Shown one piece after another: positions 6,001 to 40,848 of a stretch of 64,000 nt of DNA. This stretch comes from Amphiscolops sp. MND2022 (taxonomy: Eukaryota), in NCBI GenBank assembly GCA_964187785.1, contig OZ076409.1, positions 59,768,001 to 59,832,000 of the forward strand, given 5' to 3'. The position numbers and the translations under genes were made by a program. Numbering within the stretch: position 1 is the stretch's first letter; each line of letters starts with the position of its first letter. Under the pieces are notes generated by a model. The model was not told the origin of the DNA. It worked only from the letters and a program-made list of their open reading frames with translations, and did no database searches.

Positions 6001-7438
6001 GGCCTATTCGTCTCCTGGGTCGTGCTTGGCCCCTAGGTCGAGTGCGAGATGAAGTTTGTCTCCGGGCTTGGCGTTGCTCGTTAATAGCCTCCTGTCTCAC
6101 GTTGGCGAGGGTTTGAGCCCCAGGGCTGGACACGGCAGGAGAATGTGGGTCAGTCTCTAAGTCTACCTGTTGATTGCTGGCAGTGGTCGGAGGAGCAGGC
6201 ATCGCTACACTTGATTGGAAGTCCGGTTGGGATTCAGCCTCACTGGTCATGCCTGAACTTGCGCCGCCTCTACGTGTGGAGTAGGTAGCTACGGAATCAC
6301 TTCCGATATCTGTGTCAGTATCATGGCCAGACATCGAAGGAACACGCCTTCTAGAAGCAGTTTTTGCAGGACTACCCAAGTTCAATCGGCTCGCCCGTTC
6401 CACTACGCTGCTAAGCATCTCAAAAGACGCTCGGGCACTTTCGTCTGCTACAATTCTGAGGATGCTGGTAATTTGATCCTGATTTAGCGCAATGACAGGG
6501 TGTCCTGGATCAAGGCAGATAGGGTTTGTTTCTGTGAAACATTGTTTGATGATAACCCTGCTGGTACCTGACAACGGTGGCGGATCAGTGATGGGTGGCA
6601 AATCGGCAACGTTTGAATCATGACTAGATTCATCGCGGCAAGAAATCTCACGAACCTTTGCCGGGCAATACAGCGCTTGTCCCAAGGTAGACCTAGCCAT
6701 AGATCCGGTGTCGGTCTCCATCTCAAAGCAAGAGTCTTCATCTGTTTGGTACCGGTAGTCCATTGGCCCTTTGCTGACTTGCGGATCACCAGACCCAGAA
6801 GCATCGATCTCTTGTCTCCCTTCCTGTGCTCCTTGAAGGTTGGGAGTAACTTGCGGCTCCTCAAGGACTTGTTCCACTAGCCCTATGTTAGCAGGCTGAG
6901 ACGGGCCCTCAGTGGTAGTAGCAACAACCCCGACTTCAGGATTAGATGCCATCAGGCTTTGGTCAACTACTTTGCTTGCTGACGTAAGGTCCTGTCTTCC
7001 GATGGTGGTGTTATTCGTCCCTTCTTGCGAATCGGATTTGTCCAGGAAGACGACTCTAGGGACGCTTTCTGTAAGTTGGACTTCGGGGATCATCTCATTC
7101 AGCGCAGGAGTAACAGCAACCAACTCACTCACACTTGACTTTGCCTCAACAGGAATCTCAGTTGCACGACTAGCGGGATCTTGCTCAGCGCTCTCAAGCA
7201 ACTCAGCTGTACGCCTGATGTAGGCTTCGCAGCTTTCAGTGTCCGTATTGGAAGACAGCTCAACTATAGATCTTATGTCCGTTGGCGACCCTCTGTTCTC
7301 AGACTCTAACATCTGTCCAACTGTTGGGGAGTCAATTTCCATCTGTTCGGTGACGTTTTGTTCTGGTTGGCCGTCCATTTCTTTGCCTAAACGGAAAGAA
7401 ATAAATTTTCGCGATCCACTTCCGTTAAAGAAATCCAT
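3088..7438 (-). CDS. Spliced antisense accessory gene of element 1, ~1,290 aa: low-complexity N-half, BED-like C2H2 finger, putative degenerate hAT-transposase core. Exons 7438-5444, 5291-4806, 4733-4444 (possible 31-nt intron 4598-4568), 4232-3088
   Basis: Zn finger IYCQICKCNVSI..G..EILRHF...RH. GT-AG introns 5443-5292, 4805-4734 and 4443-4233 join the ORF-track fragments in frame and match element 2 in position and phase. Confidence 0.8.
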
Positions 7439-8909
7439 CTTATCGCGTTTGAAAGACTTTCGAAAGCAAGCTTATTATTTGTTCATACCTATGGTTGAAT
7501 ATTTCACGATGGAGGAAGTGAAAACTAGTCAATGGGAAGCCCTGATCAAGCTCAAAATTGACAAAATAAGTTGAAAGAACCAACCTGATGTTTATCCAAA
7601 TGGAGAACAGAATTGGTGGAGCAAGACGTGGCTGACTGAAAGGATTCTTGGTCTGTCCGAATCGGAGTAGTGACGCGAAGGATGAGCAGACTGAAACAAA
7701 GTCGTAAGACGGCGGATACTGTTGGAAGGGTGACCTATGCCAATTAGACTGCTAGTCCAATTAGTAGAATCTCGAGGAATGAACAACGTTGGTCGGGAGT
7801 ACTGTCAACAAGTTGGAATACTCGTAGAAGAATAGTTCAATGTTGTCTAGGAGAAACAAGAAGGGTGAACTAGATGAAGAATTCTGAACCGAGATTGAAG
7901 TCTCAAAAGTGGACTCTACGTCGATCTAGGGACAATTAGACCAGTAGTCCTGGAAACGAAGTCCAACGAGAAGATGTAACTAGAAGAACTATCCAAGCAG
8001 GAAATATTTTGTGCAGATTTGGGGATCTAAAACTGCTGTTGAATGATAGAATTAGAATTGGGAATGCAAAATGTAACAAAGGATTAACAATTTGAAAGTC
8101 GTACTGTGAACTGTGAAAATTAGCAAACTGGTTTACTATGCTTTACGGCAATTAGACTGAAAGTCTCACTTACAAGTTTTACTTCTTACCGTTCAACTTG
8201 ACTCTCAAGACTGATTATTACTCAATCGTATTTTACGTTTATTTCATTTACATCAAAGGACGTCGTGGCAAAATACAAGTCATTTATTATTACCAAAGCT
8301 ATTAGCTCTTTTAATTACCTATACACTATGATCTTCAGTGTTACAGAACCTGCCAGTGATGTACATTCAGCAATCATTTCTTTTCCATTCCTTTGTTCCA
8401 GTATTAGAGTTACCATCATTACCATTATTAATTTCATCCATTTATGCCATTTTACCATTTTCATTCAAATTCATTCAGAATTATTTATTCATTTATCAAC
8501 ACGCTCTGATTGGACAGTTGGTCTTTGCTAGCCGCTGAGACCGACGGTCTTTGATGACACTTCACTAGTGTTAATGAGTGATGATAAACAATCTCATCAC
8601 CCATTGTCACCTCTTCAATAGTTAATACAACCACTTGAGATCAAACTCAAGCACTTATCAACTTTACAAGCGGCTGATCATCAAAACGAAATTGAGAAGG
8701 GAACCCGCTTAATAAGGAAATGTTAAGAAACCAAAGAGGGCTGCAGGGAAACTTTCCCTAACTTATTTTCCCGCGAATTTTCGACCCTCTGACCTAAGGT
8801 CAATCAGCCCGAGGTAGCCATTCTTCTGAATCTCAATCTACAAATCAGCAGCTCACTTTCATACTCAAGAATTGCTAAGAAAATCTTACTAAAGAGATTT
8901 CAAACAGAT

Positions 8910-9728
8910 ATGTCTCTACAATTTGCAGTAGAAGATTTAATTAGCCCCTTGGTTAGCCTGTCTTATCTATCCTCAGAGGAAGAAGACATGGACGTGGACG
9001 ATCCACAAAAAGCCCCAGACGAGAAAGGTTATGACAGCGACATAGAAGTGATCGCCTGTTACAGCGAGGCTCAGTCCACTCGACCATTGGGGATAGCGGG
9101 ACGTGCCATGACCACTGAATTCACGGACGATGATGACTTAACGCTACTGGAGGAATTGTATGGCAGGTCAATAAAGACGGACACAGAGCCCCCTAGCGAC
9201 CTTGTAGACCAGATATTGGGCATTCACCCTCCTAGCTATTCCAGAAGACTCAGTCAGGAGCGACCCATTGCTGAGTGTGCAAGAATTAGCCCAATTCCAG
9301 ACACCCCACTATCTCCACCTCCGCACGAGCAAGGGTGTAATGTCAATAACGCTGGCAACCCGTGGTCAGATGATGACTTCCCTTATCAGCCCAATAACGC
9401 ACATATTACTGGGATTGCCATAAGCAACAGCGGGGTGTGTGGGCTGCCGAACCAAGTCGCCTTTGGGGACTGCATAGTGTGTGGGAAGTCTTTTGAAACA
9501 ATACGAGAGGAGATCACCTTCAATTTTTTGGAGCAGACTCACCTCGTGGGTGAGACGTACAATACCCGACTCAGACGAAGAAACGCCTTTCAGGCAGGAA
9601 TGCTTGCAGGCTCGTTTACTGTCATCCCCCGGGGAGTGTCGCAGGCTGCCGCCTGTGATGGAAACAGCTACCAAGTGATGGTGGATGAGAACGACCTGAG
9701 ATATATGCCAGGAACACTGCCACTTTAG
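8910..9728 (+). CDS. Accessory ORF3 of element 1 (272 aa, acidic, one CxxC motif, unknown function); last 92 nt lie in the 3' LTR
   Basis: Uninterrupted ORF. Shares IAGRxMTTE, PxSPPxHExG, CxVCGKS and VSQAAACDG with the element 2 homolog. Confidence 0.8.
   Translation: MSLQFAVEDLISPLVSLSYLSSEEEDMDVDDPQKAPDEKGYDSDIEVIACYSEAQSTRPLGIAGRAMTTEFTDDDDLTLLEELYGRSIKTDTEPPSDLVDQILGIHPPSYSRRLSQERPIAECARISPIPDTPLSPPPHEQGCNVNNAGNPWSDDDFPYQPNNAHITGIAISNSGVCGLPNQVAFGDCIVCGKSFETIREEITFNFLEQTHLVGETYNTRLRRRNAFQAGMLAGSFTVIPRGVSQAAACDGNSYQVMVDENDLRYMPGTLPL
9631..9636 (+). promoter_or_regulatory. Short polypurine-tract candidate (GGGGAG) abutting the 3' LTR
   Basis: Purine run directly 5' of the LTR TG; much shorter than a typical PPT. 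Confidence 0.45.
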
Positions 9729-11383
9729 GCCGCGTATACCGCTGATCTGCTGGGAAACTTAGTGCATGACTTATATTTTTTTTCACAAACAATTAGAATG
9801 TGAATTTATGCTATTACGGACCGAAGGTCCACTGGTCTTAGTATGACTTGTAGTACCAATTGCATTTTAGTATTCATTACATAGATATAGCATTCATTGT
9901 ATTCTGTTTGTTGATTTTATACGCTGCGCATGTACACTTTATATATATATTCACGTCTTTATGCTTGTGTATTCTACATGTAAACCAGTAGTGCAGAATG
10001 TATTAATTATCGATGAAATGTAGCTGTAATAATCAAGATAACTGGCAAGGTAAAGGAAACGCGTTCGAATTGTCCGCCGCGTTGGTCAATTCGAACGCGT
10101 AGTCCGCAACCTTAATTAGCCAATCACATGCGAGCTTTCTTATTCACTTACTTGCTGGCCTTTGCGGCGACGCAAGTCATATTAGACTGCCGGTCCACTT
10201 ATTGTCGGTGTATTTACTTTGATGATTATTAATCTTAACTAAGTGCAATACTATTGGTGCATATAAGTATGAGCTCAGCACAAGTCTTGCTGTCATTAAT
10301 ATGAAAGGCGTACTGCCTCTTCCCCCCCATTTTCCTTCCTCTTTATCTATTTTTAGATCTAATACACGTAGAGATGCTAATTTTAGAATTACAGGAACAT
10401 GTGACGTAAACTTCCCAGGGCCTTTTGCCCGTACTTGTGTCTATATTTAGTTTGACAGCATTACGTCATAGTGACGTTAGTATGTAAGTTGCTAATTTTA
10501 GTAACATGACTATACATATTACTGCATGTCATGATGCAAGGACTATAAATACGGGGACCACTAGTCCCAAGGGATGAATCTTGACGATTAATGATGATTA
10601 CAAACCTACAACTCACCGCTATCTATCACCATCAGTGTTCTAATCATTTTGAGACTACAAGTCAACCTTCGCTTTAGTAGACTGCTTTAGTGATATATCG
10701 TTCTGTTATTGTTTGAATACTCAGTTCAAGTTGGGATATTTGATACAAGCTCGAATATACTCTTACCTGAGCAAATATTTCTTCAATGCCTTCTACTAGA
10801 AAGCAAAGAGCTAAGGAAAGACGCTCTAGGCAATTAGACATCATGTCTGATACAGAAAACTTAGACGTAATGCTTGGATCATATCCAAGAAATGAATTAG
10901 GAAATGACTCTGATAGGAATGGTGAAATAGACCTAGGGTCAGATGGGACTAGAGGAGACCCACTGCAAAATAGTGAGGATTTCAGGTCACTTTTAAACTC
11001 AAACAGTAACGAAAATAGTGAATCGACGGTTGAGACTATGAGGCTCGTTAATTCTGAGATTACAAAGAAAATTGATGAACTGAGAAGAGAACTTAATTCT
11101 CAGCTGGTTGATGTCATTAATTCAGCAATCACTGAAAAGGTTTTACCTGATATTAGAAACTTGGTTTCCAACCAAAATCCAGTGTTTCGGGAAGAAGTGG
11201 ACCAGAGGTCCAGTGGACTTAACAGGACCACCGAAGCGAAATTCGTTAAAAACGCTTGGAAAGGTAACTCAAAGCTTAATATGGCAACCAGTAGTCGACA
11301 AGACTACTTTAGGAGAAATTCAGAGAATTCTCAGTCTAGTGACGATGGTCATGAAGAAGACATTATGACCAATAGTCACGACA
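9637..11383 (+). repeat. 3' LTR of element 1 (1,747 bp)
   Basis: Perfect 5-bp inverted termini TGTCG...CGACA. First 22 nt identical to the element 2 LTR. Ends at the same gag codon position (His-Asp + 1 nt) as the element 2 LTR. Confidence 0.85.
10544..10551 (+). promoter_or_regulatory. TATA box candidate in element 1 LTR
   Basis: TATAAATA ~240 nt upstream of the gag ATG (10786); CCAATCA further upstream at ~10120. Confidence 0.5.
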
Positions 11384-11574: not shown

Positions 11575-11805
11575 GAAAACGTTTGAAGACCCACATTCAG
11601 ACATACCCACAAAATGAGCTAACCACAAAGTGGACATTCACAAGGAAGAGAAATAATCTAACCGAAATGAAAAAGCTGATTTGACCGAAAACAAAACTTT
11701 TAAACTATATAGTAGAGAACCGGAATCAAGCAAATGACCGAATAGCAAAATGGTGTTAGAACACATGAACTATCTGGAAGTAACTAGGCACCAAAATGAT
11801 TGTTA

Positions 11806-14800: not shown

Positions 14801-15287
14801 GAGTTTCAGCTCTTAAAACTCTTTTCCCAAGTCGAAGACTTCCATGAAAGCAAGCGGTACTCTTCGACCAAATGAAAATTTCGGAAAGACCTAACAGAGT
14901 CGAAAAAACTGAAAAGGGTATTTTCTACAATCGATGAGAAACCTCGTCAGTTCCATATGATCAAAAGTAACAAAGAAGTCACCCTCAAGACTCGGGAAAC
15001 GTATTTCCTTTACAGAAAACCTCAAAAACTAAAAATTGCGAAAAATGTTCCTTTTTTTTCTCGAATGTTTTTTATTTTCTCGGTAAGTCACATAGTGCCG
15101 AAAAAATGAAAAGTGGCCAGCTATCGCAGAAACAATAAATTAGGGGTTTCCTTTAAAATGGGCTACGATGAATCAAAGCTTTCTTTTCTTCGAACTTCTT
15201 TACGTTTTTATAGTGAATTGGCTATTCTTGAGCCTCAAAATTATGTAGTTGTAGAACAGTTTGGGTCGGAAAATATCTCGCTGCTCA
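11806..15287 (+). mobile_element. DINE-1/Helentron-like non-autonomous element, copy A (3' tip truncated)
   Basis: 5' subterminal TTTTCCGCCC, 3' inverted TTTGGGTCGGAAAA, start of the stem-loop, and ~180-bp degenerate tandem subunits (GTTGTCCAGTAG core). Homologous to copies B and C. Confidence 0.6.
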
Positions 15288-17095: not shown

Positions 17096-18975
17096 TGTCA
17101 TGAACATTTAGGTCAGGAAAATCATTGTTTAACTGATTATCATTTTGTTCATTTCTCAAGTTGTTCTTTGCGTTTAGGTTTCGTTGAACTTCGGAATTTA
17201 GTTCCGGTCTCTCGGACAGAACGTCCCATCCCTTTCTGGTCCCGTGTCCCGATCCGGCCATAATAACATTTTGGATCTGAGGAAGCACCTGAGTGCTTAA
17301 TGCATCGCTTATGGCCCTTTGTATCTGGTCACTCACAGAATTCATCATCTCATCCATTTCTCGTGAAATGCGTGAATTTAATTCGCTTGACAACCTGTTT
17401 ATTTCAGCGCTAGAGTTGCCAGTAACTGAATTGCAATCACACTCGGTATTTGTCCTAGAGTTAATATTTCTCTGGGTTTCACCCATGTTCCCATCCTCAT
17501 TTTCGGACTCGTTGCTTGCAAAGCTCCTAGGTCTCCTGGGCAAATTACTATCAAACTGCCTTCCCTTTCTCTACTGTTAAAATGGTTTTCACCTAACATG
17601 ATATCTAAATTCTCGATATCAGATAACATTTCAAGTCCTCTTGACTTCCTTGCCTTTTTCTGTTTTCTAGTGGTTGGCATTGAAACAGTTCCGAATTAAA
17701 TAAAAAATTAAACAACTCGGAAAAACAACAGCGGAGCCGTTTGTAATTCAATCTTTACTAGTAGCGTCTCAAATGAATTGTGTCCCACTCAAGCCAAGTA
17801 TCAGTATATATACTCATGAGGGGATGACATTCACATACTTTACATACTTCTAGTTAAGATTAGTTTTTTGAGGAATGTAAGGTACAACGTTTCGAAAGAT
17901 ATTTAAGTTATCAAATACCTCCAGTTACATATTTTACATATCATTGAATAGCATCAGAGCGCATATTCCAACAAAATCCCAATTGGGTGAATTCCTAACA
18001 TAGACATGTATGTCATAACTGTAACATCAAACACTCAACATTTTGGTCGGCAAACATACCGGTACTTCAAACAACATACTCATGGAATTATTATTATTTC
18101 ATTGTCAACAAATATCATCACGTGTTGATGGAATGCGAAACACGCACCATTGGTCTGTCATACTGTCACGTGCCGCCATGCGGCTGTTAATCCGCACAGG
18201 GGGAGGCAAGATCGAATATTGCATGTTCAGTTATCACGCTATTGAAACAAAGTGTATTCTAGTAAGGCCGAAATTGGCCAAATCCAAGTTAATAGTATAG
18301 CATCAAAGGAAGAGGGGTAAAAGGCCTTATTCGGCTTTTGATTAATACTTGGTTTATTAAACCCACAAAGATTAACACTAGTGTTTTTTAGCACTGAGTA
18401 CACGTCCAGAGAGATTCCTGATTAACCTAATTAGCCATAAGTACAAATAATTCAGCGTTGATGTATTTCACCAAGACGGCCGGAACCGGCCGTTTGACCA
18501 AGGCATAGAATGAAGTGCATTTATTCAGTCAATTGGCCTTACTCGGCCATTAACAATTCAGAGTTGCATTGAATTTGTAAATTGGAGCGTTTTGATTGGC
18601 CAGGACAGCGAGCTCAAGTGACGCTTTTGGATTAGCACTGTGAATCACTTGAACTCGTTTCCTATACCACTTTACAGTTGCTTGTATTTACGTATCTTTC
18701 GATCTGATAATTCACATTCTAACTGCACTTCAATACATAGTAACCCGATCTGGATATTTCCAAATCGCATAATTTTAACAGACTATTATGTATACGTGTA
18801 TAAATGAGAAAACTTAACAACGTCAATAAATGCAACATATCCAAAACAACAAAGCAGTGTAAAAGTTTGTTTAGTTGTTCTTTTGACTAATAAATCGAAA
18901 GCGTGCCGGAAGCTGTCTCCTGTCCTTGCGTAGTCGTCGTGATCCTAGTGCCGTCACAGGCGGCAGCCTGCGACA
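17096..18975 (-). repeat. 3' LTR of element 2 (1,880 bp), containing a frameshifted copy of the gag 5' segment
   Basis: About 98% identical to 31371-33235 by eye (roughly 40 substitutions, one 17-bp and two 1-bp indels). Confidence 0.96.
17805..17812 (-). promoter_or_regulatory. TATA-like element in element 2 LTR (5' LTR copy at 32081-32088)
   Basis: TATATATA ~125 nt upstream of the gag ATG. Confidence 0.4.
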
Positions 18976-19653
18976 CTGCGGGTGCTAGGAAAAGTAAGCT
19001 GCCGGCGTTAAGACCATTTGAATAGGCTTCTCTTCGTAGCGCGGTGATATAAGCGGGCTCACTCTTGGGCGTAGATCTTGTCATATACCAGTTGATCTTC
19101 TCTTGTTTTATCTGATCAGTTGACTTACCGCAAACCATGCAACTGTGACATCTTTGTCGGCTTAGGTTCGCGTACGGTAACACATTTTGTAGATGGTAAG
19201 AGGCGTGGAAATTGTCACTTACTGTTTGCGGTATTAGAGTGTCCAGTGATGGTCCCTTTTCATGTTCTGGGGGAGACATAGGTGATTCTAGGACCGGTAG
19301 CACGGTACTACACAGTTCGATTCTTGTCTTCTGCTTCTTGGAGGGTCAAAGTATTTGAAGCCCAGTTTGGGGGTCAAGGGTGGAACCATTTGTGCGTTGC
19401 TAGGTCCCGCTTCCATCTCTTCATCTACTCCTTCAGTTGTCATTACTCGTCCCGCGATGAGTATCGGACTTGATTTAACTTCCCGTTCGATCCTATTGAT
19501 CAGTGCCTCCGTGTCCGTTGACCAGTCTGAATCCCAATCACTAGATACTTCGTCCTCGCTGTCACTGGAAATGTAAATAACTGAATCCGCTGATTCTTCA
19601 GAGCTTTGCTCTTCAAAATCAAAGAGCTTCTTCGACAGGTTAAATCTCTGCAT
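18887..19653 (-). pseudogene. Accessory ORF3 of element 2, one frameshift near 19305; last 89 nt lie in the 3' LTR
   Basis: ORFs 19288-19653 and 18887-19303 together are colinear with 8910-9728. Confidence 0.8.
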
Positions 19654-20715
19654 TATTAGTTTTTTCGCAATCTTGATAAGTGCAAGAGGTAGGTAACTGG
19701 TTTAGTCAAAACTTCGAAGTGGAATGAAACCCCTAATTTCTAGAACTCAGCCGAGTCAGGCTTTTTCCCGGCATCTCATTTTGGCGGTTGAAACTTCGGT
19801 AAAACATCCTAATCCGACATAAACATTCCTGAATGGAATTTCATAATTGGTCGGCAGTCTTTGATAGTTTGATGTTTACCCCCCATCAATATCATCACTA
19901 GAAGGGGTGTGAGTGACGCTCGAATTATTAATATCAACTACACCAGTCTCAAGTGGGTAATTAACGGGTCGCTTGAAGACAATTAACGGCACGCGTCACT
20001 GATACTTCTCAAAATGGCCTCAGCCAATCAGGGCCCAACTTCGATAAATTGATAAATGAATAACTAAAATGGCGAAAATAATAAACTTGAATAATCCAAA
20101 ATGGCGGAAATTCTAATTAAGGGTAACTAAGGCAACGGAACGAAATGGCAAATCAAGGTAGGGCAAACGGCCATAACCGTCCACTAACTAAGTAACCTGT
20201 AAAGAACGAAGATCTTCTGTACATTTCGCTGGAAGGCTCCATGTACAATTTTAAATATGTAAGTAATCATATAATATTAGTCTGATAATCTCTTCAGCCA
20301 CGAACTCCAACCTTCCAATTCCTTTATTCGCTTTTAATTCCAATTCAATTTTGGTTATTTTCCATTTGTCTCTCCATCCATATCATTTCAATTGACATCA
20401 GTCTATTTACGTCACCGTCTCTCTTGTCCCTAACAACTCTTCGTTTCGGAGAATCTGTGTCCTCCCTTCTACTTTCAGGATTGGCACAACTCCACGATTC
20501 CAACCAGCTAGTTCAAGACTCTTTACGTTGGGTTAACAGTACTGGAGAAACATGTCTTCAAATACAGGTTGGTCTGGTTTTCACATATTGAACTAGTTTA
20601 GCTTGATGAAGGCTAGATTTCGTTCAAACTGCGCTTCCTTTTTCCACTAATAGATTCGTGATAACACGTTTTGTTCAAATCTGAAACACTTCCGGAAGAT
20701 TTCTAACGCGGTAAT

Positions 20716-23700
20716 ATGGATTCTTTTCGAGGAAGCATACCGCCAAACTTTATCTCTTTTCGTTTAGAGAATCAAACAACCGAAGTTGTCAGCTCACCAG
20801 CCGACCTTCCTAACAATGTTCCAACAGTCAATCCCCCAACTGAGCAGGGTAGGCAAGTCCAAAACCCGGTCTCATCTCAAGAAACGCTTCGCAGTCGAGC
20901 AGATGACGTCACCTCCACACACAGTGCTGATAGTGACCCAGATGTTACTGCATACGCGGAAAACATGGTGCGCCAGCTAGAAGGAGCACAAGTGCTCGAC
21001 CGACCACAGGGAGGAGCAGGGCAAATACAGTCAACTCAGGATATTGTTCCTGGTACTCAAGTAGATCCTCCTGCCTCGCCTACTACAGGGACCAGGAGAG
21101 CAAGCACGCCGCTCTCAGCCAATGAGGGGGAAACCACAAATGCTGATCTGTCTGCTCTAGAGTCTGCTCGGTAGAGACGTCGGATTCGCAATTGGCTGAA
21201 CTAGTAGATGTTGACCTCCCAGGCAACAACACGAGTGGCAATTCACCTGTACAACAGGACACTGAAGTAGCATCCTCCGTTGGCGATGCCCCCCCTCTCC
21301 CTGGTGGAGTATTCAAGGTCCGATACCTGACTGACCCCAGTGGAGACGAAGGTGCAACAGATCAGTCCAGCGTGTTTGTTCCAGTAGCCCTATACGGTCG
21401 TCATCCCTTCTCTCACACCTCTGAAACTGAAGGGGGAGACGATACCGGATCTGAGCTTCTTGTTCCCGGCACCAGTGGGCAGACGCCCGGGCAAGGCACA
21501 ACCCAGAAAGAGCCTCCACACCTTTCCGGAAGAAGTCGAGCGATCCTCAAAGAGTATTTCGACGAATCACCCTCCACTCGATTTCCAGTAGGACAAACCA
21601 CCGTCACCTTCACTGAGCCGCAGGTGTACCACCTTCTTAGAGTCCTCGCTGATGAGACCCTCGGAAGGTCCTTTTCGACTATGGAACGCATGGTCATTGA
21701 TGCAGTCCGAGGTAAGCCAACCGTTGCTCCATCCAGAACTGCGCACGACTACTCAGGCAGGCGCGCTAAAACTCCAGGGCTCGGTGATGCAGGAGATTCT
21801 AGTGGAAGTGACACTGAAGGAGATGCTACGCTAAGGGGCAAAAACTCGGAGCCATCCAGTTCTGGAGAGACCGGCGATTCCTCGTGTTATGGGGAGACTG
21901 ACAGTGCTACCGAAATGGATTTAATAACCAAATCCTTCAAGAAGACTATTAGTGCCCAAGATGCTCCGGAGCCTCAGTCGTCGAGCCAGGACGTCCAAGG
22001 AGACATTGATACTGTCACGCCAGAGTACAGTAGCCAAGATGCTACACTGCTTGAGGTCAGAGATCAAGCCCTGGGTGCAACCACTGCCAGCTCGTCTAAG
22101 TCCAGGAACAAGAAAGGCGACAAAAACCTTTCTAAACGAGGCGTCCCCATGCGAGAGGAATTCTTTTCCAAATTCGGATGGACGAGATCCTTCATAACTG
22201 GCCCTGCTGACCCACTCCATAACCCTCATATGGTTTGGTGTCATATCTGCAAGAAAAATTTTTCAATCAAGTCTAAAGGTCCCTATGAGATACTCAGACA
22301 CCACCGGACGGAGCGCCATTTGCGGCGAAACCAGCGCTGGCGGTATGAACACTTGCGAAGTACTGACCCAATTACCGAGAAGACGCAGCACCGGGTCCGG
22401 GGCGGCAATGGGATTGCCCCAATTCAAGAACGTTGAGCTTGTGGACATAGGAGAACGATTCCCCTTTTACGAAGATTTTGTCAAGGGATCCACAACGGCC
22501 TTAGTCACTCCATTTTCCCGCATCAAGACCCAACTTTGCCTGGTCGGAGACTTCATCAAGACTCAAGGTGATATGATGGTCATACGCAATCTGTGGTCCC
22601 GGATGGGGTCATTCACCAATCACCAAGCCACCTTCAATGACTTTGATTGGGGGGAAGAGAGATATTCGGTTAGTACCATTTATTTTAGTTGTTTATGCCC
22701 GGATCTAGCTAAGGGTTTAAAGAGGGTTTTGTCTCTAGACAATCTTCCAGCACTTCTTCATCTGCTGCCTTGACGACATAGCAGAACAAGTCAACTCCCA
22801 ACAGTGCTTTGTCCTTGAGTTTGAAACAATTGGAGTCTACAAGCACATGTCTGTCAAGTTCTAGAAAGGCTCCTAGCTTTGTAGGGTGTTTATTTGCCGC
22901 AGCTCTCGAACCACTACTGTCGTGACCGGGGAGCTGGGGTCCCTTTCCCGGTTCCTTTCCGCCGTGTCCACCAAACCCGGAATAGTTGCCTGTTCCGGAT
23001 GCCACTCGGACCTACCCAGAGCCATCGACGAATCAGAGTATTACAACCAGGGAGTTCAAAGTTGCCTGCGTTTCGAGCACTTCTCGCTACCACGACTCAT
23101 GCACAAAACCAGCTACAGCGTCTTCGGGAAGATTGCTTTCTTCTCCGTCCTACAATCCCTGATGGTCTCCTTGGGCGAATCTCTTATGGAAGACTGGGTA
23201 ACTCGTAGCCCTGAACTCACTGAAGTAAGTAGTTTCATGGAATTTCCACTGGGGGAATAAGGTCTAGGTAGGGTCGTTTCATATGTCCAACGTGTTTATT
23301 TGGATCCGTTTGCTATTTCCAGGCTATAACCAGTTGTAAGCTCGATGTGACAACTCTACCCGTCCTCTGTCGAGAACGTATCGCTGAATGGAAGTCCGTG
23401 GTTCGGTACCTCACTACCCATGCACCTCTGCAAGAAGGATCAGGATCTAGAGGAAGGGTTAGATTTTCCCCATTTTCCACTTGAACCCATAGGAATTCAA
23501 GTCGGCCTTCTTCACTTGGCTGATCTAAGGTCCACTTTCAATTGCTGTATTGATGTTGGTCTGTTCCAGATGCAAAGCTTTGAATGGTCACTGATATGTG
23601 ACGAGTTCTTCACCGTCAAGCTGGAGTTCTTCAGTAAGATTGTCAGTGATTGTTAGGGTAGTTTGTTATAAAACCGGTGATGGTAAGTTGTCCTGAACTG

Positions 23701-24883
23701 GACATTAGTTTTGTTTTCAGTCGTGACCAGCTTCTCAGTGAGCCTGCAATATCGCCGTGATTCGTCCTTCTATCTATGCGGGGAGGTCAGCCATTTCCTC
23801 AGCCTGCTTTGCTCTCGGATCTACACCCCAGACACTGCCCCTGTAGCTAATGCCTGGTTTCTCCTCTTCCGTTTCCAGACAAGCGAGGGCACTTTCCTAC
23901 CCGGGGATGAGTACCTGATCCGGCTGAAAATGACCAACAAGGTGTCAACGGCGTGCAAGGCAAGGGCCGAGGGTATCCATTTCGGCCAGAAGACTGAACG
24001 GGCTGCCATCTTAGCTACCGCTAAGACAGTGAAAGCTGACTTCGTCAAGGACAGCCAACAGTACATCCAGTTCTTGATTAATGGAATTCTCCAGAGGACT
24101 GGGCTCAGCACCAATCTCGTGAAGGGACTGACAGCCTTCGACCCCTACATCATGCTAAAAAGGCCAATGGATGTGGCTCTGCGGCACTTTGACGTGCTTT
24201 ACAATACCTTCGCGCTACGATCCTGGGTCGATGATTCAAACGAGTCTCTATGACGAGACCAACATATTCAGCTACTAGACCACCTCCGTACTTCCTACGG
24301 TTCCAGCTTTGGCATCACTAGTGTGGCAGCCGATCTGATCGCGTTCCTGATGGGGCTCGAGTTTCTCCACGAGCGTTCTCATCTTTTGTACCTTTTTAAG
24401 TTGAGTTGTTTGTGTACAACCGTTACCAGCTCCAGTTATCCAGATGTCGTCTTTGGAGATGTCACCACTGCCGGAGGGCAAAACTGATTCACTGACTTGG
24501 TTTTACCTTGTCAGAATTACATGGCTAATGTTGCTGGTTCCGTCATTCGAAGCAGTGAAGATTCCAACCTTGCCAAGTTTTCTGCCCTCGCTGCATCTTT
24601 TGGACGCGCTGCCTTCTCCCCAGAGTACGACCCTCGGGCTTACACGGACACTTTTGGCCGTTCAAAGATATATAAGTCCCTCTTAGCCACCCATCGTAAA
24701 GCCGATTCAGCTCCGAAAAGGGCCTCAGCGCAAGGTGATTGGGAGGGAAGTAGTACTGTGGGTGACCAATCTGCTGTGAGGTACCCTAGCAGCAAAAAGC
24801 GAAAGAGGGATAGGAGCGGTTCGCGATCGTCCACATCTTCTGTTGCTGGAAGTCCCAGTAAAGATTCCTCCACTAAGTCCTGA
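20716..24883 (+). pseudogene. Spliced antisense accessory gene of element 2 (disrupted). Exons 20716-22668, 22739-23224, 23323-23651, 23721-24883
   Basis: Colinear with 3088-7438: MDxFxGS...FISFRL start, WCHICKKNFSI..G..EILRHH...RH finger, FKLSCLC, FG..A...YDP...D.FGR. Several premature stops and frameshifts. Confidence 0.8.
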
Positions 24884-25127
24884 TTTTGTACATATGTATT
24901 TATGTACTTACAAACTGTAATCTTTGTTTACTTTCTGTTTTGTTGTTTTATTTATTCTCGTTTTGCTTTCTTGATTCCCTGATCCCATATTTGTCTTCTT
25001 TGTAAGGGATCGCCTTTAAGTCCCATTATTTGTTCAGAAAATACTGTCTTCCATGGGACTGGAAAAAAAGATAAAAGAAAAGGAGAATCCGATTCAGGGC
25101 TTGTCTCCTGAACTGAATTCAGTCTTT

Positions 25128-28100
25128 CTAGTATCTAAAGTCTATTGAGTAGTTTGGGTTAGGATTAGGCCTGAGATTATATTTCCCTCCTCTAGGGCTC
25201 AGACTTTCATTTCTGCCATCATTTTCAGATATTTCGGGCACGGTAATATCATTTCCCCTGTTTGGAGAATTTTGCGCATCGTTTTTATTCGTCGATTTTC
25301 TTTTTGAAAGTTTTCCATCATTTTTCAGTTTTTCGTCCGTATTCGGCAAAAGTTTTTCTGGGTTTTCTGGGTAAACGGCCGGATTCGGCCAATCAGATTC
25401 TTCATTGCGTCATTCTCGCCTACGTCACCATGACTCGGTTCTGCCGCATTCGGCTGTTCACCATTCGGCAAGCTAGTCGGAATAGGATCGTGTCCTCGTG
25501 TTACGAGCTGCTCGCCAAAGTCTGTTTCCCACGTTATGATATATAAGTCGTCTTGCGGAATGACGATCTCTTCATCAGGCTGTAACCACTGTTCTCGGAA
25601 ATTGTCCTCAAGCGGTTGGTTAGGGACAAACTTTTTAAGGCGAATCCGATGCAATATTTGAGTCTTGTTTGTATTGATTCGTCGTACAATATAATTCTCG
25701 TTAGGTAAAACTTTTTGGACTATAAATGGTCCGACCCACCTATAATCACGGAATGGAATTTTTGATCCTTGATGATCCGCTTTCGGCTGTAATACAAAGC
25801 AGTAGTCATTCTCCTTTAGTGGTGCGGCTTTTGCCTTGCGGTCATAGTAATCTTTGTACTTGATATATGACTGCATAATGTTTTGCTTTGTTTTGTCAAT
25901 CAAGATTTTTGTCCGGTTTTGTATTTCTTCAGCAAATTCGGTTGTTGGGTTGACCTGCTCGTTTGGATTATTTCCAAGCTTGTGATCCAGGATATTATAT
26001 GGAATTCTTCCATGAAATCCTCTCGTCGGTTCACAACCGATGCTGGCATGGTAACTAGTGTTGTGGTTTAGTTAGTGACAAGTATTTGTGCCATTGTCGG
26101 CGGTAATCTCCACATGCCATTATGAGATTTGTTTTCAGCGAGGCATGGGTCCGCTCCTATTTCCCAATTGTTTGCGGATGTTTTGTTGTTGCACATTTGA
26201 GTGTTATGCCCAAAATTTGCGTCATCTCCGCAATGATTGTAGAAGTAAATGCAATACCTTTGTCCGTAATAAGCGTTGTCGGTAAGTATGCATGCTTGGT
26301 CATAATGTCAATGAGCGCTTTTGCTACGTTGATCGCCGATGCGTCCGTAAGAGGATAGGCGAACAAATATCTGGAAAATACGTCAATCGCTGTTAGGACA
26401 ATTTCAAATCCTCCACTTGGGGGAAGATTCGGCAATAGGTCAATTTGCATGGCGTCTTCAGGTCCAAGGTCCCATTCGGGCAAGTTGAGCAGCTCAGGCG
26501 TAATTGTTGCGTTAGGGACTCGCTTGTCTTTTGCGCATTCTTCACACCCCTCTACCCATTTTTTGACGTGTTTAGCCATGTGAGGGTAGTAATACCTTTG
26601 TCGGTTTCCTGCAACATTTTTGAGATACCAGGATGTTTATGTGCCGTTCCGTGAAGAGACTGAAGTAATTCCTGGAGTAAGTGTTGCGGGAGCAGAATTT
26701 GATGGTATTTAACGTTCCCTGTTTCATCAAAGTTTTGCCTTGTCAGGATTTCGTCCTTTAGTACAATTCGTTCCCGATTGTTTGCATAGTGCCTGTATCG
26801 AGCATCCTGATGCAGTAGATTTTCTGAATACTCTTCATGAAGCAGTTTTGCTTTCAATTGTTGTAGTACCGCATCTTTGGATTGCTCGATAATGATCTGG
26901 TTCGTCTTCCTCAATCGGACTTGTATATCAGGGTGTTGTTTGGCCAGATTTGTTGATAGAGTTTGTATTGTAACCGTGGGCTCATGAATAGCTGGATTTT
27001 TCCTGATTGTTTATTTCCTTGCCCAGTATTGTTCGTCTGTCTCATCATCGTCATTAGTGTAGAAGATTTGTTATTCCTGTGACACCCCTGCTGATTGGAC
27101 ATTTATTTCGATTGGTAACGTTTGTACATCTTCGCGGATCTTCATGACTAGTTTGTCTTGCGGGTCTGCTTCCAGACGGGACAAATAGTTGGCGGCTGTA
27201 TTTTGTGCTCCTGGGATGTGCGCTATGACAAAATTGAACTGAATCACATAATCACACGCGTTCCACAGTGCTGGAGGTTTTATTTTCGTTTGAGAAAATC
27301 GCGTGACAGCTTTGTTATCTGTAAGCATAATCACCGGTTTCGGCGCACCCCAGAAGATATGTCCAATTTCCTTGAATGCAAAATAAATTGCAAGGAATTC
27401 TTTGGCGTAAATTGACATTTTGATCTGTGCTGGGGTGAAGGTTTTTGATCCATATGCTACAAGGGCATATGACTTTCTGAGTGACGTAAATTTCTGATTT
27501 GGGTCATCATCGATTAGGACTGCATATCCGGCTGCACCAAAACTGGCGTCAGTCATTAATGCGATTTGCTTGTTCGGAATGGGTTGCTGTAGGGCCAAGT
27601 CGCAACATTTGTCTAGTGCTCTATTGATTTCTTCGAATTGCTGGACTAATTCTTTCGATACTAGGACCTTTTCGTCACTTTTCAGCATCTTGTAAAATGG
27701 AGCAAGGCGTTCGGAAAATCTTGGGACATAATTCCTGTAGTAGTTTAGGAATCCCAAATAGCGTTGTAAAGCCTTTTTCGACTTCGGGAATTTGGTCTTT
27801 TCCAGAAAGTTTTGCACATTCTGTTTCTGGGGCTTGACGCCTTGTGGGGTATTAGTCCGTCCGAGAAAATCAATTTCTTTTGCACCAAAGTGACATTTAT
27901 GCATTGTCAACTTAAGGCCTGCTTCCTGAATGCATTTGAACGTTGCTCTCAGGTTAGCTATGAGGTGGTCAGCGCCGTTGGCTGCGATGCCGATGTCGTC
28001 CACATACTGGGCACATTGGTCCGCTTTGATGACTTTGTCAAGGTATTCCCTCATAAAGCTCGAAAATGCGGACAGAGCTTGGCTAAGACCTTGTGCCAAA

Positions 28101-30257
28101 CGTCTGTATGCAAATGTGCGACTGACGAAGTTAAAGGCCATTATTTCAATCGATCGTTGGTCAGCCATCGGTAAGCAATGGTATGCCTGCGAGCAGTCTA
28201 ATTTACAGAACAGTTTTTTGCCTGCCAAGTGTTGGGCGGCGTCGACTAAAGTACTTACGGGGTGATTATTGTTTATGTAATCATCAGATATGAGGTTGTT
28301 GATTTTTCTCAAGTCAACCAAGAGTCTGAGTTTTCCGTTCGGTTTCTTTTGTGCGAATATTGGACTCGCATATTTCCACGGTAGGGAAACGGTAGGGAAA
28401 CCACGAAACCATATTCGAGAACGGTAGGGTGGTGATGATGCCATATTTGTGTAACATGGCCAGTTCGACTAAGTTGTCCTCCTTCAGGTTGATAGGGGCT
28501 GGGAGGCTCTGGCTATAGGCTGGGGAATCGTCCTTAGGTGTCAATTTCACCTTGAATTCCTCGTTCATGCCTATGTCAAATCTGTGTCGTGCGAATATAT
28601 CATGGAATTCCACTAGCAATTCCTCAATTTTCTCCCTTTCTTCAGGAGTAAGGGTGGAATCTTTCCAATCAAAGTTTTCTAGGAATTTTGCACGAGATTC
28701 TTCATCTTTGGTGGGGTCGAGTGTCTCCAGGTCCTGTAAGGCCTGTAGTTCTCGTAGGATTCTTTTCTGGATGGGTGTGTGTTCCTCAGGGTTTCCAGGG
28801 TTTTCTGTGGTTGGGAACCAGTAATTTTCGGAATTTTGAGGATTTCTGTTCGTCTTGATGAGGCTGCTGACATAATGGGCTGCCTGCTCTTGGTCCTTTT
28901 GCAAAAGGTGCCAGGTTGAAGCCGGGTCTACCGGTTTGACATATTTCATCTGTTCTGGCGTCATGACTGAGAAATTGGCAAAATGAAGTCCTTTTTTAAG
29001 TTTATAAGGGTGGTCTGTGAAATTGTTCACAGGTATGGATATACTGCCATCATTTAGAGTGACCAAGGCTGGGCAAAATGTGATGTCGCCTTCTTCATGT
29101 AGAAGGTCGCTCGGTTGCAAAATCCCAGCAACGGCATTCTCAGGATACAAGGAGGAATTGGTCCTAATTAGGGACTCTGTCATTTGGCGGAATTGTTATT
29201 TCAGTGGGGTTGAGAATCGGTTCTAGTACGTTGGAATATTTGTGGTCAGCTGTTTTAAGCTGCATTGAAAAGAACGGGAAATTTAGGATTCCTTGTCTCA
29301 TGTCCAAAACTGTATGATTTTTCTGAAGGAACATTAGTCCAATGATCGGTCCTGTCAAATGTCCCATTACTATGAAGATTTCATGGAACTCAATGTCACC
29401 AACTTCGAATTTGAGCTCTATGGTACTCTTGGGAGTTTCCAGTTGCCCATTAGCGACCATGATTTGGAAGTTCGGAGGCGGACCTTCTCGGATAACAGAT
29501 TGTGGAGATAGAAGACGGATTTTCCGGAGGTCCATTTCAGGGATTGCACTGGAGAGAGCCCCAGTGTGTATGAGTCCATCAATGGTCAGTTCCCAAAAGT
29601 CCATTGGGAAATAAAGCATGCGTTTCTTGCATTTGAGGTTAATGTTGGTTGACAGAGGTATACAGTCTGGCTCACCGTCTTTGGTTATGAGTACATTCTG
29701 GAATTGTTTCTCGTCTAATAGTGATTGTGGTATGGATTCGGCAGTAGTTTCAGGATTCTCGGTCCCCAAGGGGTTTGGGAACACTGGGTGGTTTGTACCA
29801 TCGTTCATTTGCCAGTTTTCAATTAGTGCTCGTGTTTTCTTGTTGTGGGTAATTGGAGGGTTCTCGTGGACTTGTTGTAGTGTTCAATGTCGTCTAGAAC
29901 ATACTGAAATTGCAATAGGTCCTGATTATAAATTTCAGTGTCCCAATAGGGATCTCTGCCATAGTCTGGGTTGATGTATGTTGGGTTGTAATCATCGATC
30001 AGGGGAATGGGCCTGAACCGGGTTGTAAAGGTAGTTGTATAATCAGGATCCCAAACAGGAATTGGTTTCTGGAACAAATGGGTGTTATTGTAGGTGATGA
30101 TGGTGGCTTTTTCCATCTGCTGCTGCCAGACAAAAGAAGGATAGCCCATCAATTGCTGATTGTATTGATGAAAGGTTTGCGTTGGAGGTTCCGATCTGAT
30201 GTATTGTCGGACAGATATTAGTTCGTTGTATTGGAGTCGTGGCGAAGTTAGTTTTTT
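25128..30257 (-). pseudogene. pol: pol of element 2 (protease, RT, RNase H, integrase), multiply disrupted
   Basis: Protease LIHTGA (Asp>His at 29566-29568), RT QYVDD, RNase H TDAS, integrase HHCC + DDE with a nonsense codon at GK*ERTH, WVGPF motif. Confidence 0.95.
30251..30257 (-). promoter_or_regulatory. -1 ribosomal frameshift slippery heptamer A AAA AAC at the gag/pol junction
   Basis: tcA AAA AAC TAA directly before the gag stop; the -1 frame opens here and continues toward the protease region. Confidence 0.7.
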
Positions 30258-31358
30258 GACTCATCATTGGAAGATGAGGATTGGGAGCTTGATGATGTTT
30301 GCTTGTTCTGAGGTTTCTGAGCCTTTGGGTTGGGCTTATTGTCAGTTGAGTCTTCGGGCCTAGTGCGTTTGGGTTTAAGATGTGCACCGGCACCTTGCCA
30401 ACATCTTTCCTCCGGGTGGTTCTTTTTGCCACAAGTGCCACACTCCGGATATGTTTTCTTCTGAGTCGACTTGCCCTGTTGGGCATCTCTCTCTTTTTTT
30501 TTCAATTTTTCGCAGTCCTTGACCATGTGGCCTTTTTCCTTGCAGTAATTGCAAGTGATGTCTGACATTTGCGCAGTGGACAGAGGAGTTTTAGGCTTGG
30601 CAGATGAGGAAGTCATTGTCGCCATTGGTAGGTCGTCGGACTCCTCGAGTGCGATAAGCTCCAATTCTCTCTCCAAATGAGCAACTATCTCATCGTATGA
30701 GCCATTTTCTAATCTGGCCATGTTGACGGACCGCTTCAGTTTTGGTGGCAGTTTTGCGTGAAGCAAGCTGTCAATCATTTTCTGCGCATGGTCTCCAAAC
30801 GCTTTCTCTGCCCCTTGATTCAATTCTTCAAGGAAATCAGGCAGTTTCATCGTATTGGGAACAAAGACCAGACGGTGCCTTTTATGTTTGGCAGTCGCCT
30901 GTGATTCGGGTTTGACGTATTTTTGTCTGAAAACAACTAGTACGTCTTCGAGGGTTTGTCGATTTGTCGAATTGATATTCCTGAATGTCTGGAGAGCATT
31001 TTCCTCAACAATGAATGAAAATGATTAATTTTCATTTGCTCGGTCGTTTCTGGCTGCATCTTGATCATAGTGTGAAAGAGATCTTCGAACAGCTCAAATT
31101 TCTCACTTTTGCCGTCGAACGTCATGGTATTGGAGTTGACTGGGCGTATTGTGAGTTGTTGAGCTGTAGGTCTATTCTGCATCGTAGTCAAGACGTCGGC
31201 CAATCTGGTAATGGGGTCAGGATCTGCAGCTGTAGCGATTCTCTCATGCGCTGGGCTCGTCGTGTCAAGGTTGATGTCCTCATAGGACTGATTGAGATGA
31301 GTTCTTGATGGGATACGTCCTGTGAGAAACTCAAAAACTGGATTTGGAGATTCGTTGT

Positions 31359-31370
31359 CTCCTGTCACCA
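31359..31370 (-). promoter_or_regulatory. Primer-binding site TGGTGACAGGAG
   Basis: Starts with TGG immediately after the LTR terminal CA. Confidence 0.75.
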
Positions 31371-33235
31371 TGTCATGAACATTTAGGTCAGGAAAATCAT
31401 TGTTTAACTGATTCTCATTTTGTTCGTTTCTCAAGTTGTTCTTTGCGTTTAGGTTTCGTTGAACTTCGGAATTTAGTTCCGGTCTCTCGGACAGAACGTC
31501 CCATCCCTTTCTGGTCCCGTGTCCCGATCCGGCCATAATAACATTTTGGATCTGAGGAAGCACCTGAGTGCTTATTGCATCGCTTATGGCCCTTTGTATC
31601 TGGTCACTCACAGAATTCATCATCTCATCCATTTCTCGTGAAATGCGTGAATTTAATTTGCTTGACAACCTGTTTATTTCAGCGCTAGAGTTGCCAGTAA
31701 CTGAATTGCGATCACACTCGGTATTTGTCCTAGAGTTAATATTTCTCTGGGTTTCACCCATGTTCCCATCCTCATTTTCGGACTCGTTGCTTGCAAAGCT
31801 CCTAGATCTCCTGGGCAAATTACTATTCAAACTGCCTTCCCTTTCTCTACTGTTAAAATGGTTTTCACCTAACATGATATCTAAATTCTCGATATCAGAT
31901 AACATTTCAAGTCCTCTTGACTTCCTTGCCTTTTTCTGTTTTCTAGTGGTTGGCATTGAAACAGTTCCGAATTAAATAAAAAATTAAACAACTCGGAAAA
32001 ACAACAGCGGAGCCGTTTGTAATTCAATCTTTACTAGTAGCGTCTCAAATGAATTGTGTCCCACTCAGGCCAAGTATCAGTATATATACTCATGAGGGGA
32101 TGACATTCACATACTTTACATACTTCTAGTTAAGATTAGTATTTTGAGGAAGGTAAGGTACAACGTTTCGAAAGATATTTAAGTTATCAAATACCTCCAG
32201 TTACATATTTTACATATCATTGAATAGCATCAGAGCGCATATTCCAACAAAATCCCAATTGGGTGAATTCCTAACATATACATGTATGTCATAACTGTAA
32301 CATCAAACACTCAACATTTTGGTCGGCAAACATACCGGTACTTAAAAACAACATGTTCATGGAAATATTATAATTTCATTGTCAACAAATATCATCACGT
32401 GTTGATGGAATGCGAAACACGCACCATTGGTCTGTCATACTGTCACGTGCCGCCATGCGACTGTTAATCCGCACAGGGGGAGGCAAGATCGAATAATGCA
32501 TGTTCGGTTATCACGCTATTGAAACAAAGTGTCTTCTAGTAAGGCCGAAATTGGCCAAATCCAAGTTAATAGTATAGCATCAAAGGAAGAGGGGTAAAAT
32601 GCCTTATTCGGCTTTTGATTAATACCTGGTTTATTAAAACCACAAAGATTACCACAAGTGTTATTTAGCACTGAGTACACGTCCAGAGAGATTCCTGATT
32701 AACTTAATTAGCCATAAGTACAAATAATTCAGCGTTGATGTATTTCACCAAGACGGCCGGAACCGGCTGTTTGACCAAGGCATAGAATGAAGTGCATTTA
32801 TTCAGTCAATTGGCCTTACTCGGCCATTAACATATCAGAGTTGCATTGAATTTGTAAATTGGAGCGTTGTGATTGGCCAGGACAGCGAGCTCAAGTGACG
32901 CTTTTGGATTAGCACTGTGCATCACTTGAACTCGTTTCCTATACCACTTTACAGTTGCTTGTATTTACGTATCTTTCAATCTGATAATTCACATTCTAAC
33001 TGCACTTCAATACATATTTCCAAATCGTATAATTTTAACAGACTAATATGTATACGTGTATAGATGAGAAAACTTAACAACGTCAATAAATGCAACATAT
33101 CCAAAACAACAAAGCAGTGTAAAAGTTTGTTTAGTTGTTCTTTTGACTAATAAATCGGAAGCGTGCCGGAAGCTGTCTCTTGTCCTTGCGTAGTCGTCGT
33201 GATCCTAGTGCCGTCACAGGCGGCAGCCTGCGACA
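31371..33235 (-). repeat. 5' LTR of element 2 (1,865 bp)
   Basis: TGTCG...TGACA termini; direct repeat of 17096-18975. Confidence 0.96.
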
Positions 33236-39553: not shown

Positions 39554-39702
39554 TGGCGCAATGATTTGGTTCTCAAAACAAAAAGAGTTTGTTGCGTTTT
39601 TCCGAGAAGATTTGCAGTCAAACTTTATTTTTAATTTTTTGGTGTTGTCGTTGAACCGTTTTCTTATTTTGTTTTTTTTGTTAGTTCAAGTTTGACCGCA
39701 AA

Positions 39703-40551: not shown

Positions 40552-40848
40552 GAATAAGAATACAGCTGTAACGACCGACTGTTCAGCTCAACATTTGACT
40601 GGCGTGATTTCAAGACGTTCTTTGGTAAGCAAATTTGTTGAAAGAAGTCTTTTTTTTTTCAAATTTTTTAATAGGGAAAAACAAGAAACAAAATATAATC
40701 GAATAATTAGATAACTTCCCCTAACAACTCAAAGTAAAGATTATCTCATAGAGGTAGCAAAATTTATTCCATGAGCCATGCTTTTTAATTGTTGATTCAA
40801 AAAGGACAAAACCTACAGTTGCAAATTTCATTTCTTCCAATTTACAGA

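Follow-up and report, generated by a model that had tools for sequence, protein, structure and literature searches.

The locus raises the question of what kind of gene is carried, oriented antisense, between pol and the 3' long terminal repeat (LTR) of an animal Ty3/Gypsy retrotransposon, where this gene came from and what it might do for the element. The DNA analysed here is a 64,000-nucleotide stretch of Amphiscolops sp. MND2022 (assembly GCA_964187785.1, contig OZ076409.1, positions 59,768,001 to 59,832,000, hereafter the window), which forms part of chromosome C1 of a 1.07-Gb genome and holds two divergent copies of the element, termed element 1 and element 2. Both carry an antisense gene with exons A, B, X1, X2 and C and a sense open reading frame termed ORF3, together called the cargo. 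The reading that we favour, with some reserve, is that a class I retrotransposon domesticated the transposase gene of a class II (hAT) element, introns included, as an antisense accessory gene, which was kept under selection through a radiation of thousands of copies beside a second novel protein.

Two elements with one layout

Element 1 spans 17096-33235 on the minus strand. Its LTRs, recovered as a long direct repeat by self-BLAST of the window (coordinates in Table 1), have TG...CA ends, are flanked by a 5-bp target duplication and differ by 37 mismatches in 1,863 aligned bases and one 17-nt indel. Along the minus strand, the order is LTR with the start of gag, primer-binding site (PBS), gag, protease, reverse transcriptase (RT), RNase H and integrase, the antisense gene, a spacer, ORF3 and LTR. 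The knuckle, protease, RT, RNase H and integrase were recognized in Gypsy order by Pfam, and with LTRs, target duplication, gag-pol order and a tRNA PBS all present, the element is a Ty3/Gypsy LTR retrotransposon. Element 2 shows the same gene order on the plus strand, with its 3' part at 1-11383, its 5' LTR beyond the window and an LTR pair 99.8% identical. The spacer measures 1.0-1.4 kb across the two elements.

The initial annotation had described this layout in both elements, with LTR interiors that could not be aligned and accessory proteins that matched in part, and on these three points it was confirmed, as self-BLAST aligned the two elements in pol alone (68-72% DNA identity), leaving LTRs and cargo unaligned, and the cargo proteins matched at ~30-41%. 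Element 1 proved a poor exemplar, being a decayed copy damaged in gag, pol, the antisense gene and ORF3. In element 2, pol is interrupted and the cargo frames are open.

Copy number and co-inheritance

The layout, at first thought to have been seen twice, is that of a whole lineage with thousands of copies. Exact motif counts over the whole genome returned 2,288 matches for the antisense gene and 2,540 for the integrase, while the reversed controls returned none. First-look candidates were more numerous (7,579 for exon C, 6,356 for ORF3 and 24,270 for integrase, with 107, 142 and 150 scored, respectively) and are not copy numbers. Among the first 100 integrase-motif matches on chromosome C1, the antisense motif was located on the opposite strand within 8 kb downstream in 63, compared with 0.7% expected by chance, and in 57 of the 100 the spacing from integrase motif to antisense motif was 3.9-4.4 kb. 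Since the antisense motif is intact in just 54 of 62 known loci, the co-occurrence of 63% is a floor. Chance or a two-copy artefact was ruled out by the copy number and the spacing. The antisense gene is carried by at least ~2,300 copies of ~16 kb, equal to ~3% of the genome as a lower bound, and elements bearing it may help explain the LTR load of this genome.

Exons B and C and ORF3 were present in order in all 40 cargo-selected loci, picked from the 257 exon-C matches listed. The full layout was found in 18 of 20 integrase-selected loci, the remaining two showing one internal deletion and one rearrangement; these loci were chosen from 150 integrase matches, favouring long open frames and places absent from the cargo lists. 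Two more divergent cargo loci likewise follow a pol end. The proposed co-segregation of cargo and clade was thus checked, the cargo being present in thousands of copies and travelling with the integrase. In three copies, each from a different clade, the two LTRs are 99.8, 99.9 and 100% identical, indicating that the lineage was mobile very recently.

Relatives were also sought elsewhere. The exon C profile retrieved 721 proteins among 1.84 billion representatives, and the best 150 of the 721 all resemble the antisense-gene family. Eight of these 150 were looked up and all were ENA predictions; 97 of the 150 are <60% identical to any of the copies collected here, and one is at most 32% identical to any of 105 places scored in the genome, which suggests that relatives of the antisense gene exist in other assemblies. 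No relative was confirmed among 111 and 104 pattern matches in the JGI metagenomes and IMG/VR.

Exons and splicing of the antisense gene

The antisense gene is predicted to be spliced, with five coding exons, a product of ~1,280 aa and four GT-AG introns. In alignments of 41 loci (L039 was left out owing to a ~920-nt insertion in intron 3), the four introns sit at homologous positions in clades only ~30-45% identical in protein. Canonical splice dinucleotides were found at 318 of 328 sites, comprising 152 of 160 and 166 of 168 in two groups, and the internal exon lengths of 486, 135 and 82 nt were kept in 34, 38 and 38 loci, respectively. The introns vary from ~67 to 211 nt, and the phases join up.

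Natural variants lacking introns confirmed two junctions exactly. Intron 2 is precisely missing in L071, and intron 4 in L071, L075, L076, L082 and L084, four of which form one clade in the exon-C tree. Such precise loss would be the outcome expected from recombination with cDNA of the spliced antisense RNA. Introns on the opposite strand are not removed from a genomic RNA. The antisense introns therefore persist, since transcription of the genomic RNA proceeds from the other strand.

Selection and clade history

Ratios of nonsynonymous to synonymous divergence (dN/dS) were taken as pairwise Nei-Gojobori medians within clades A and B for pairs with dS of 0.2-1.5, which are not independent of one another. 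The medians were 0.04-0.07 for the finger region, 0.04-0.08 for exon B and 0.07 for exon C, together with 0.16 for the disordered N-terminus and 0.13-0.18 for ORF3; the C-terminal part of the integrase gave 0.03-0.13 across three clades. The clade C cargo offered no pairs in this dS range, its young pairs lying at 0.12-0.29. Higher values are general among young pairs (0.12-0.46, and 0.75 on 5 pairs for ORF3 of clade B), as expected from decay after insertion. Within the codons of the antisense frame, variation is concentrated at the third position (0.33-0.51), the second position showing 0.05-0.13.

These values, far below 1, indicate that the antisense gene and ORF3 are under purifying selection, with the folded exons resembling the integrase, and bear out the initial proposal of element-level selection on the cargo. 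Passive nested insertion was ruled out by dN/dS and co-inheritance, and an RNA-only antisense function by the codon-position pattern.

In trees of 45 loci, clades A and B each group on both integrase and exon C, and clade C groups on the exon-C tree and is poorly resolved on the integrase tree. L071 and L085 are identical in the integrase segment and 56% identical in exon C. Judging from these comparisons, pol and cargo have been shuffled within clades and between subfamilies by recombination. The cargo diverged much faster than pol, exon C being 28-45% identical between clades versus 92-99% for the integrase core among closest matches. As a separate observation, the synonymous sites of the cargo saturate far earlier than those of the integrase.

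Origin of the antisense gene

Exon A specifies a stretch of ~450 residues that is acidic and rich in Ser, Thr and Pro, as well as a basic patch and a C-x2-C-x16-H-x5-H finger, which is invariant or nearly so in 24 copies and gave a weak generic C2H2 match in Pfam, with no zf-BED match. The protein runs from a disordered N-terminus through the C2H2 finger to a predicted RNase-H-like part and then a helical region. On the basis of its motifs, we had suspected a degenerate hAT transposase before the ESM Atlas was searched. Searching the Atlas with a natural intron-less frame of exons B and X1 resulted in two unnamed clusters at the top (0.88 and 0.86), followed by hAT-type clusters (0.81-0.86), the named matches including DUF4371, FAM200/ZBED5 RNase-like, GTF2IRD2-like, DUF659, ZMYM1-like and SCAND3-like proteins. 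All ten best named matches fall in one clan, which by the calibration of the tool amounts to no more than a lead. The AlphaFold model of exon B (predicted local distance difference test score, pLDDT, 57) has the strand-strand-strand-helix-strand-helix order of an RNase-H-like start, the landmark spacing placed by eye is 57/22/66/299 residues versus 67/28/65/264 in 74 hATs, and two per-exon HHalign alignments fell in the expected order (E 0.1 and 0.14). The antisense gene is, on these features, probably of hAT transposase origin.

A series of results weighs against this origin. The Atlas scores of 0.81-0.88 are below the 0.9 mark of the tool, ten same-clan matches were also reached by a third of shuffled proteins, and exon C had no usable Atlas match. 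Pfam gave no match in 78 exon-C relatives and the window proteins. HHalign against 111 ZMYM1/Tip-type hATs gave E 0.1, 0.14 and 0.018, the last non-colinear, all within the shuffle range, as were the comparisons with 11 hAT frames of the same genome. The scores of the hAT hidden Markov model for exons B and C were no better than those for the reversed exons, and the cargo profiles matched nothing in 50 hAT loci of the same genome.

Further searches were also without a positive result. Nothing significant was found in PDB sequence searches with five profiles, and a word-index search for exon C relatives of 675-2000 aa found none among 8,000 candidates scored, which is weak evidence. Fold searches gave no confirmation of a hAT fold, the structure models being too weak for such a search. 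The C-terminal dimerisation domain PF05699 had no Pfam match in the 78 exon-C relatives, where a degenerate form could escape, and neither terminal inverted repeats nor the 8-bp duplication of a hAT transposon were seen around the antisense gene by self-BLAST at E 1e-8, which is blind to short or old repeats.

Alternatively, the selected accessory protein might derive from a host gene or an unknown element, its hAT likeness being the chance resemblance of an alpha/beta domain beside a zinc finger. This origin, which we consider doubtful although the strongest of the rivals, is in keeping with alignment- and fold-based tests that were all negative or inconclusive and with the failure to find a free-standing donor. 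However, every named Atlas match listed was hAT-type, domain order and landmark spacing fit hATs, and the hAT templates used were probably not the nearest subgroup.

Given a hAT origin, catalysis has very probably been lost. The hAT catalytic motifs (DDE triad, CxxH and RW) were found in 73-104 of 111 hATs, and when the cargo was aligned by eye, other residues occupied the positions corresponding to the second D, CxxH, RW and final E. With these motifs not kept at corresponding places of that alignment, the protein would be inactive as a transposase.

Proposed function

In the history that we propose, an autonomous Ty3/Gypsy lineage would long ago have acquired a spliced gene that lies antisense to its own genes; the most likely source is the transposase gene of a hAT DNA transposon that had landed between pol and the 3' LTR. 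The introns of the acquired gene, escaping removal from the genomic RNA, would survive every replication cycle. Transcription from an internal promoter in the spacer and splicing would yield a nuclear protein of ~1,280 aa that retains the zinc finger and the transposase scaffold and has lost the catalytic residues. This protein might serve the element as its own regulator in trans, binding specific DNA sequences and either activating the copies or countering their silencing; it might also feed back on a palindrome before its own start.

The C2H2 finger, the basic patches and the perfect palindrome before the ATG speak for a regulator. The palindrome is perfect in 35 of 38 loci, has two forms differing by a compensatory pair and occurs essentially once per element. 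It also resembles what we take to be a host ETS/STAT-type site, which counts against the regulator. Whether the captured, catalytically dead hAT transposase acts as the element's DNA-binding regulator appears evenly balanced, and a role in transcription or chromatin is about as plausible as all other roles taken together. The regulatory role given to the accessory genes in the initial annotation is putative.

The same dead transposase could instead act at integration or nuclear entry, tethering the pre-integration complex to chosen DNA or chromatin. A DNA-binding finger on an oligomeric transposase scaffold would suit this task, the integrase has no chromodomain match in the Pfam scan, and selection on the folded exons equals that on the integrase. 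The tether is nevertheless unlikely, as near-identical integrases pair with very different cargo alleles (the L071/L085 pair), against a tight co-evolving integrase interface, and the three target duplications read all differ. Less probable again, and by a clear step, is a suppressor or decoy directed at the small-RNA or zinc-finger defences of the host, or a dominant-negative inhibitor of rival hAT transposases; the rapid divergence of cargo relative to pol would be expected in host conflict and the genome holds 2,215 hAT candidate loci, but no averaged region showed dN/dS near or above 1. A still-active nuclease or transposase giving the element a DNA-based step is highly improbable despite two acidic exon B positions that are invariant or common (E27 in 35 of 35), since the hAT motif positions are replaced and the copies examined show LTR-type ends and 5-bp duplications.

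ORF3

ORF3 encodes a protein of ~285 aa, and in an alignment of 24 copies the identity to that of element 2 is 26-63%. It matched nothing in Pfam or PDB, and none of 28 copies reached a Kyte-Doolittle value of 1.6 over 19 residues, the threshold applied for a transmembrane helix. An env identity was ruled out by the lack of such a helix, and ORF3 is, as predicted from its sequence features, a second, non-envelope accessory protein. The initial annotation had described ORF3 as overlapping U3, and the overlap does exist, although it is confined to ~90 nt at the start of the 3' LTR.

Codon conservation in ORF3 begins upstream of the first AUG in all clades, with K-I-A-K-K in 26 of 28 intact frames (8868-8931 and 19653-19674). 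The Ile codon has A at -3 and G at +4. ORF3 may use non-AUG initiation or an unseen upstream exon.

Element ends and gag-pol

The gag frame of element 1 opens 585 nt short of the end of the 5' LTR and continues across the 12-nt primer site; in three copies gag measured 577-596 aa with pol in the -1 frame. Some 195 gag codons lie inside both LTRs (31371-31956 and 10786-11383), and solo and 3' LTRs thus carry a gag N-terminal fragment, which is under selection (dN/dS 0.11-0.14). None of the 120 RT relatives listed carries a name. Two pol relatives (P0171 and P0194) each have a precomputed dUTPase match (PF00692).

The purines before the 3' LTR number 5-7 in clades A and C and none in clade B (18976-18995, 9618-9636 and loci L031-L090). 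Clade B thus has no polypurine tract, yet its LTR pair is 99.9% identical. The LTR starts with a nearly invariant hairpin of 9-10 bp (-10 to -17 kcal/mol), with a compensatory change in one subgroup, which overlaps ORF3 coding sequence. Plus-strand priming may be unusual in this lineage.

Tandem tRNA-Leu-like genes of the primer type form a large array from G000:C8:35587099 onward, and their pattern has 985 matches genome-wide, 971 of them on the forward strand. The target of element 2 is a 17-bp minisatellite (11384-11476), whose unit begins with the element 2 target duplication.

Feature coordinates and other features of the window

Table 1. Positions of element features in the 64-kb window
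Feature	Position	Strand	Description
Element 1 5' LTR, 1,865 bp	31371..33235	-	Conserved hairpin at start; holds first ~195 gag codons
Element 1 PBS, 12 nt	31359..31370	-	Within gag frame; complementary to 3' end of tRNA-Leu(AAG) of same genome
Element 1 gag	30248..31956	-	CCHC knuckle; frameshift near 30950-31020; A6C slippery site before stop, pol in -1 frame
Element 1 pol	25128..30260	-	Protease-RT-RNase H-integrase, Ty3/Gypsy order; split into several fragments
Element 1 antisense gene, exon C	23721..24883	+	~385 codons in relatives; helical region and basic tail; broken ~24250
Element 1 antisense gene, exon X2, 82 nt	23570..23651	+	
Element 1 antisense gene, exon X1, 135 nt	23323..23457	+	
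Element 1 antisense gene, exon B, 486 nt	22739..23224	+	Predicted RNase-H-like part (three-strand/helix/strand/helix); two stop codons
Element 1 antisense gene, exon A	20716..22668	+	Disordered N-terminus, basic patch, C-x2-C-x16-H-x5-H finger; two frameshifts
Palindrome, 10 bp	20689..20698	.	~20 nt upstream of antisense ATG; compensatory double change between clades
Element 1 spacer, ~1.0 kb	19675..20688	.	Separates divergent antisense gene from ORF3; may hold an internal bidirectional promoter (inferred)
Element 1 ORF3	18887..19674	-	Acidic/proline-rich N-terminal half, C-terminal domain with Cys; final ~30 codons in 3' LTR; frameshift near 19300-19345
Element 1 3' LTR, 1,880 bp	17096..18975	-	Not preceded by a purine tract
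Element 2 pol, 3' part (RT-RNase H-integrase)	1..2865	+	Frame broken near 680-810
Element 2 antisense gene	3088..7438	-	Exons 7438-5444, 5291-4806, 4733-4599, 4525-4444, 4232-3088; all open, 1,280 codons in total
Element 2 ORF3	8868..9728	+	286 codons from conserved N-terminal motif; first AUG 8913, aligned Met 8931
Element 2 3' LTR	9637..11383	+	gag start at 10786; 5-bp target duplication

Outside the two elements, the window contains a long interspersed nuclear element (LINE) at 36740-40587, with ORF1 at 39703-40587 and an endonuclease-RT frame of 900 aa at 36740-39442. A dispersed non-coding repeat family occupies 11800-15287, 41016-43911, 49333-49989 and 59093-60712, with internal ~185-bp tandem units that are 65-88% alike. 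In addition, there is a perfect 168-bp palindrome at 58334-58501, a nest of inverted repeats at 52385-53587 and a 200-N assembly gap at 46814-47013. A large host exon with five Ig I-set domains, which we take to be titin/obscurin-like, lies at 60911-64000. Its Ig domains point to an animal host, and the gag N-terminus may point to an acoel.

Comparison with known systems

The cargo resembles HTLV-1 HBZ, nef and sag in position only. HBZ is spliced and encodes a small bZIP protein. Its expression is driven by the 3' LTR of a retrovirus with env, whereas the antisense gene starts 1.7-2.2 kb inside the element. In the available text of PMC11963269, HBZ is described as a nuclear accessory protein encoded in antisense close to the 3' end.

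Searches of the full-text literature, which included few subscription papers, with the transposable element databases Repbase, Dfam and GyDB outside the search, revealed neither a hAT-derived cargo nor an antisense gene of several exons in any animal Gypsy element. Acoel papers report Gypsy and LTR abundance, and internal structure does not feature in the parts available (PMC5054442, PMC6451197, PMC9911081). Fixed accessory domains in many copies are described, in the accessible sections, for the giant Gypsy element Burro of planarians (PMC6431247) and for an orchid Gypsy element with an AlkB ORF (PMC9289625). In contrast to the present lineage, those extras are polyprotein domains or simple ORFs, with no spliced antisense gene described there, and the word 'antisense' does not occur in the available portion of PMC6431247.

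Regarding the protein, hAT transposases and their domesticated derivatives (DUF4371, ZMYM1, FAM200-ZBED5 and GTF2IRD2, with Hermes as the structural model) have the N-terminal zinc finger, RNase-H-like segment and helical region that are predicted for it, and are its language-model neighbours. The Hermes BED domains bind a quasi-palindrome, according to the text at hand (PMC10368747). The antisense protein differs in unconserved catalytic motifs, the lack of Pfam and HHalign support, a long acidic disordered N-terminus and its carriage by a retrotransposon rather than a host or an element with terminal inverted repeats. VANC of the MuDR-type VANDAL elements, an anti-silencing protein that was probably captured and repurposed to favour its own family, as far as the partial source goes (PMC13547354), provides a model for a captured anti-silencing factor as an accessory protein captured by a transposon. 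VANC, however, belongs to a plant DNA transposon and is traced there to a host MAIN-like protein, so that the two are likened by role, not by sequence.

The closest likeness in layout is to the plant Tat-lineage Gypsy elements (Retand, maize Grande and rice RIRE2) and fungal Boty, which have a long region between pol and the 3' LTR with a conserved antisense ORF. In the parts of these two sources available (PMC7264820; PMC11963269), conserved antisense ORFs are placed between pol and the 3' LTR in Grande, RIRE2, Retand and Boty, the region measures 2.9-6.6 kb in Retand, and gene23 of Grande is nuclear with its own internal promoter. The plant antisense ORFs are stated there to be of unknown origin and function and to resemble no other transposable element, and capture from a nested element is called unsupported. 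The word 'intron' does not occur in the available text of PMC11963269. The present lineage differs in its animal host, five exons, a product of ~1,280 aa with a zinc finger and an additional sense ORF3, and the cargo has no Pfam match to the TRP28 domain (PF04195) of the Tat/Retand type. In layout, then, the lineage matches the plant antisense-ORF elements, but its domain content places it outside their group.

Where the additional antisense genes of LTR retrotransposons come from and what they do is treated as an open question in the same two sources, as far as they were available (PMC7264820, PMC11963269). With its thousands of copies, several young clades, selection data for individual exons, intron-loss variants and a candidate binding site, the lineage allows direct tests, in an animal, of whether one transposon has captured the enzyme of another and whether an element encodes its own regulation. 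If the favoured reading is true, the element would be an animal LTR retrotransposon with a self-encoded chromatin regulator, and its antisense extra gene would have a traceable origin in the nested insertion of another transposon, where the plant reviews, in the parts available, call such an origin unsupported.

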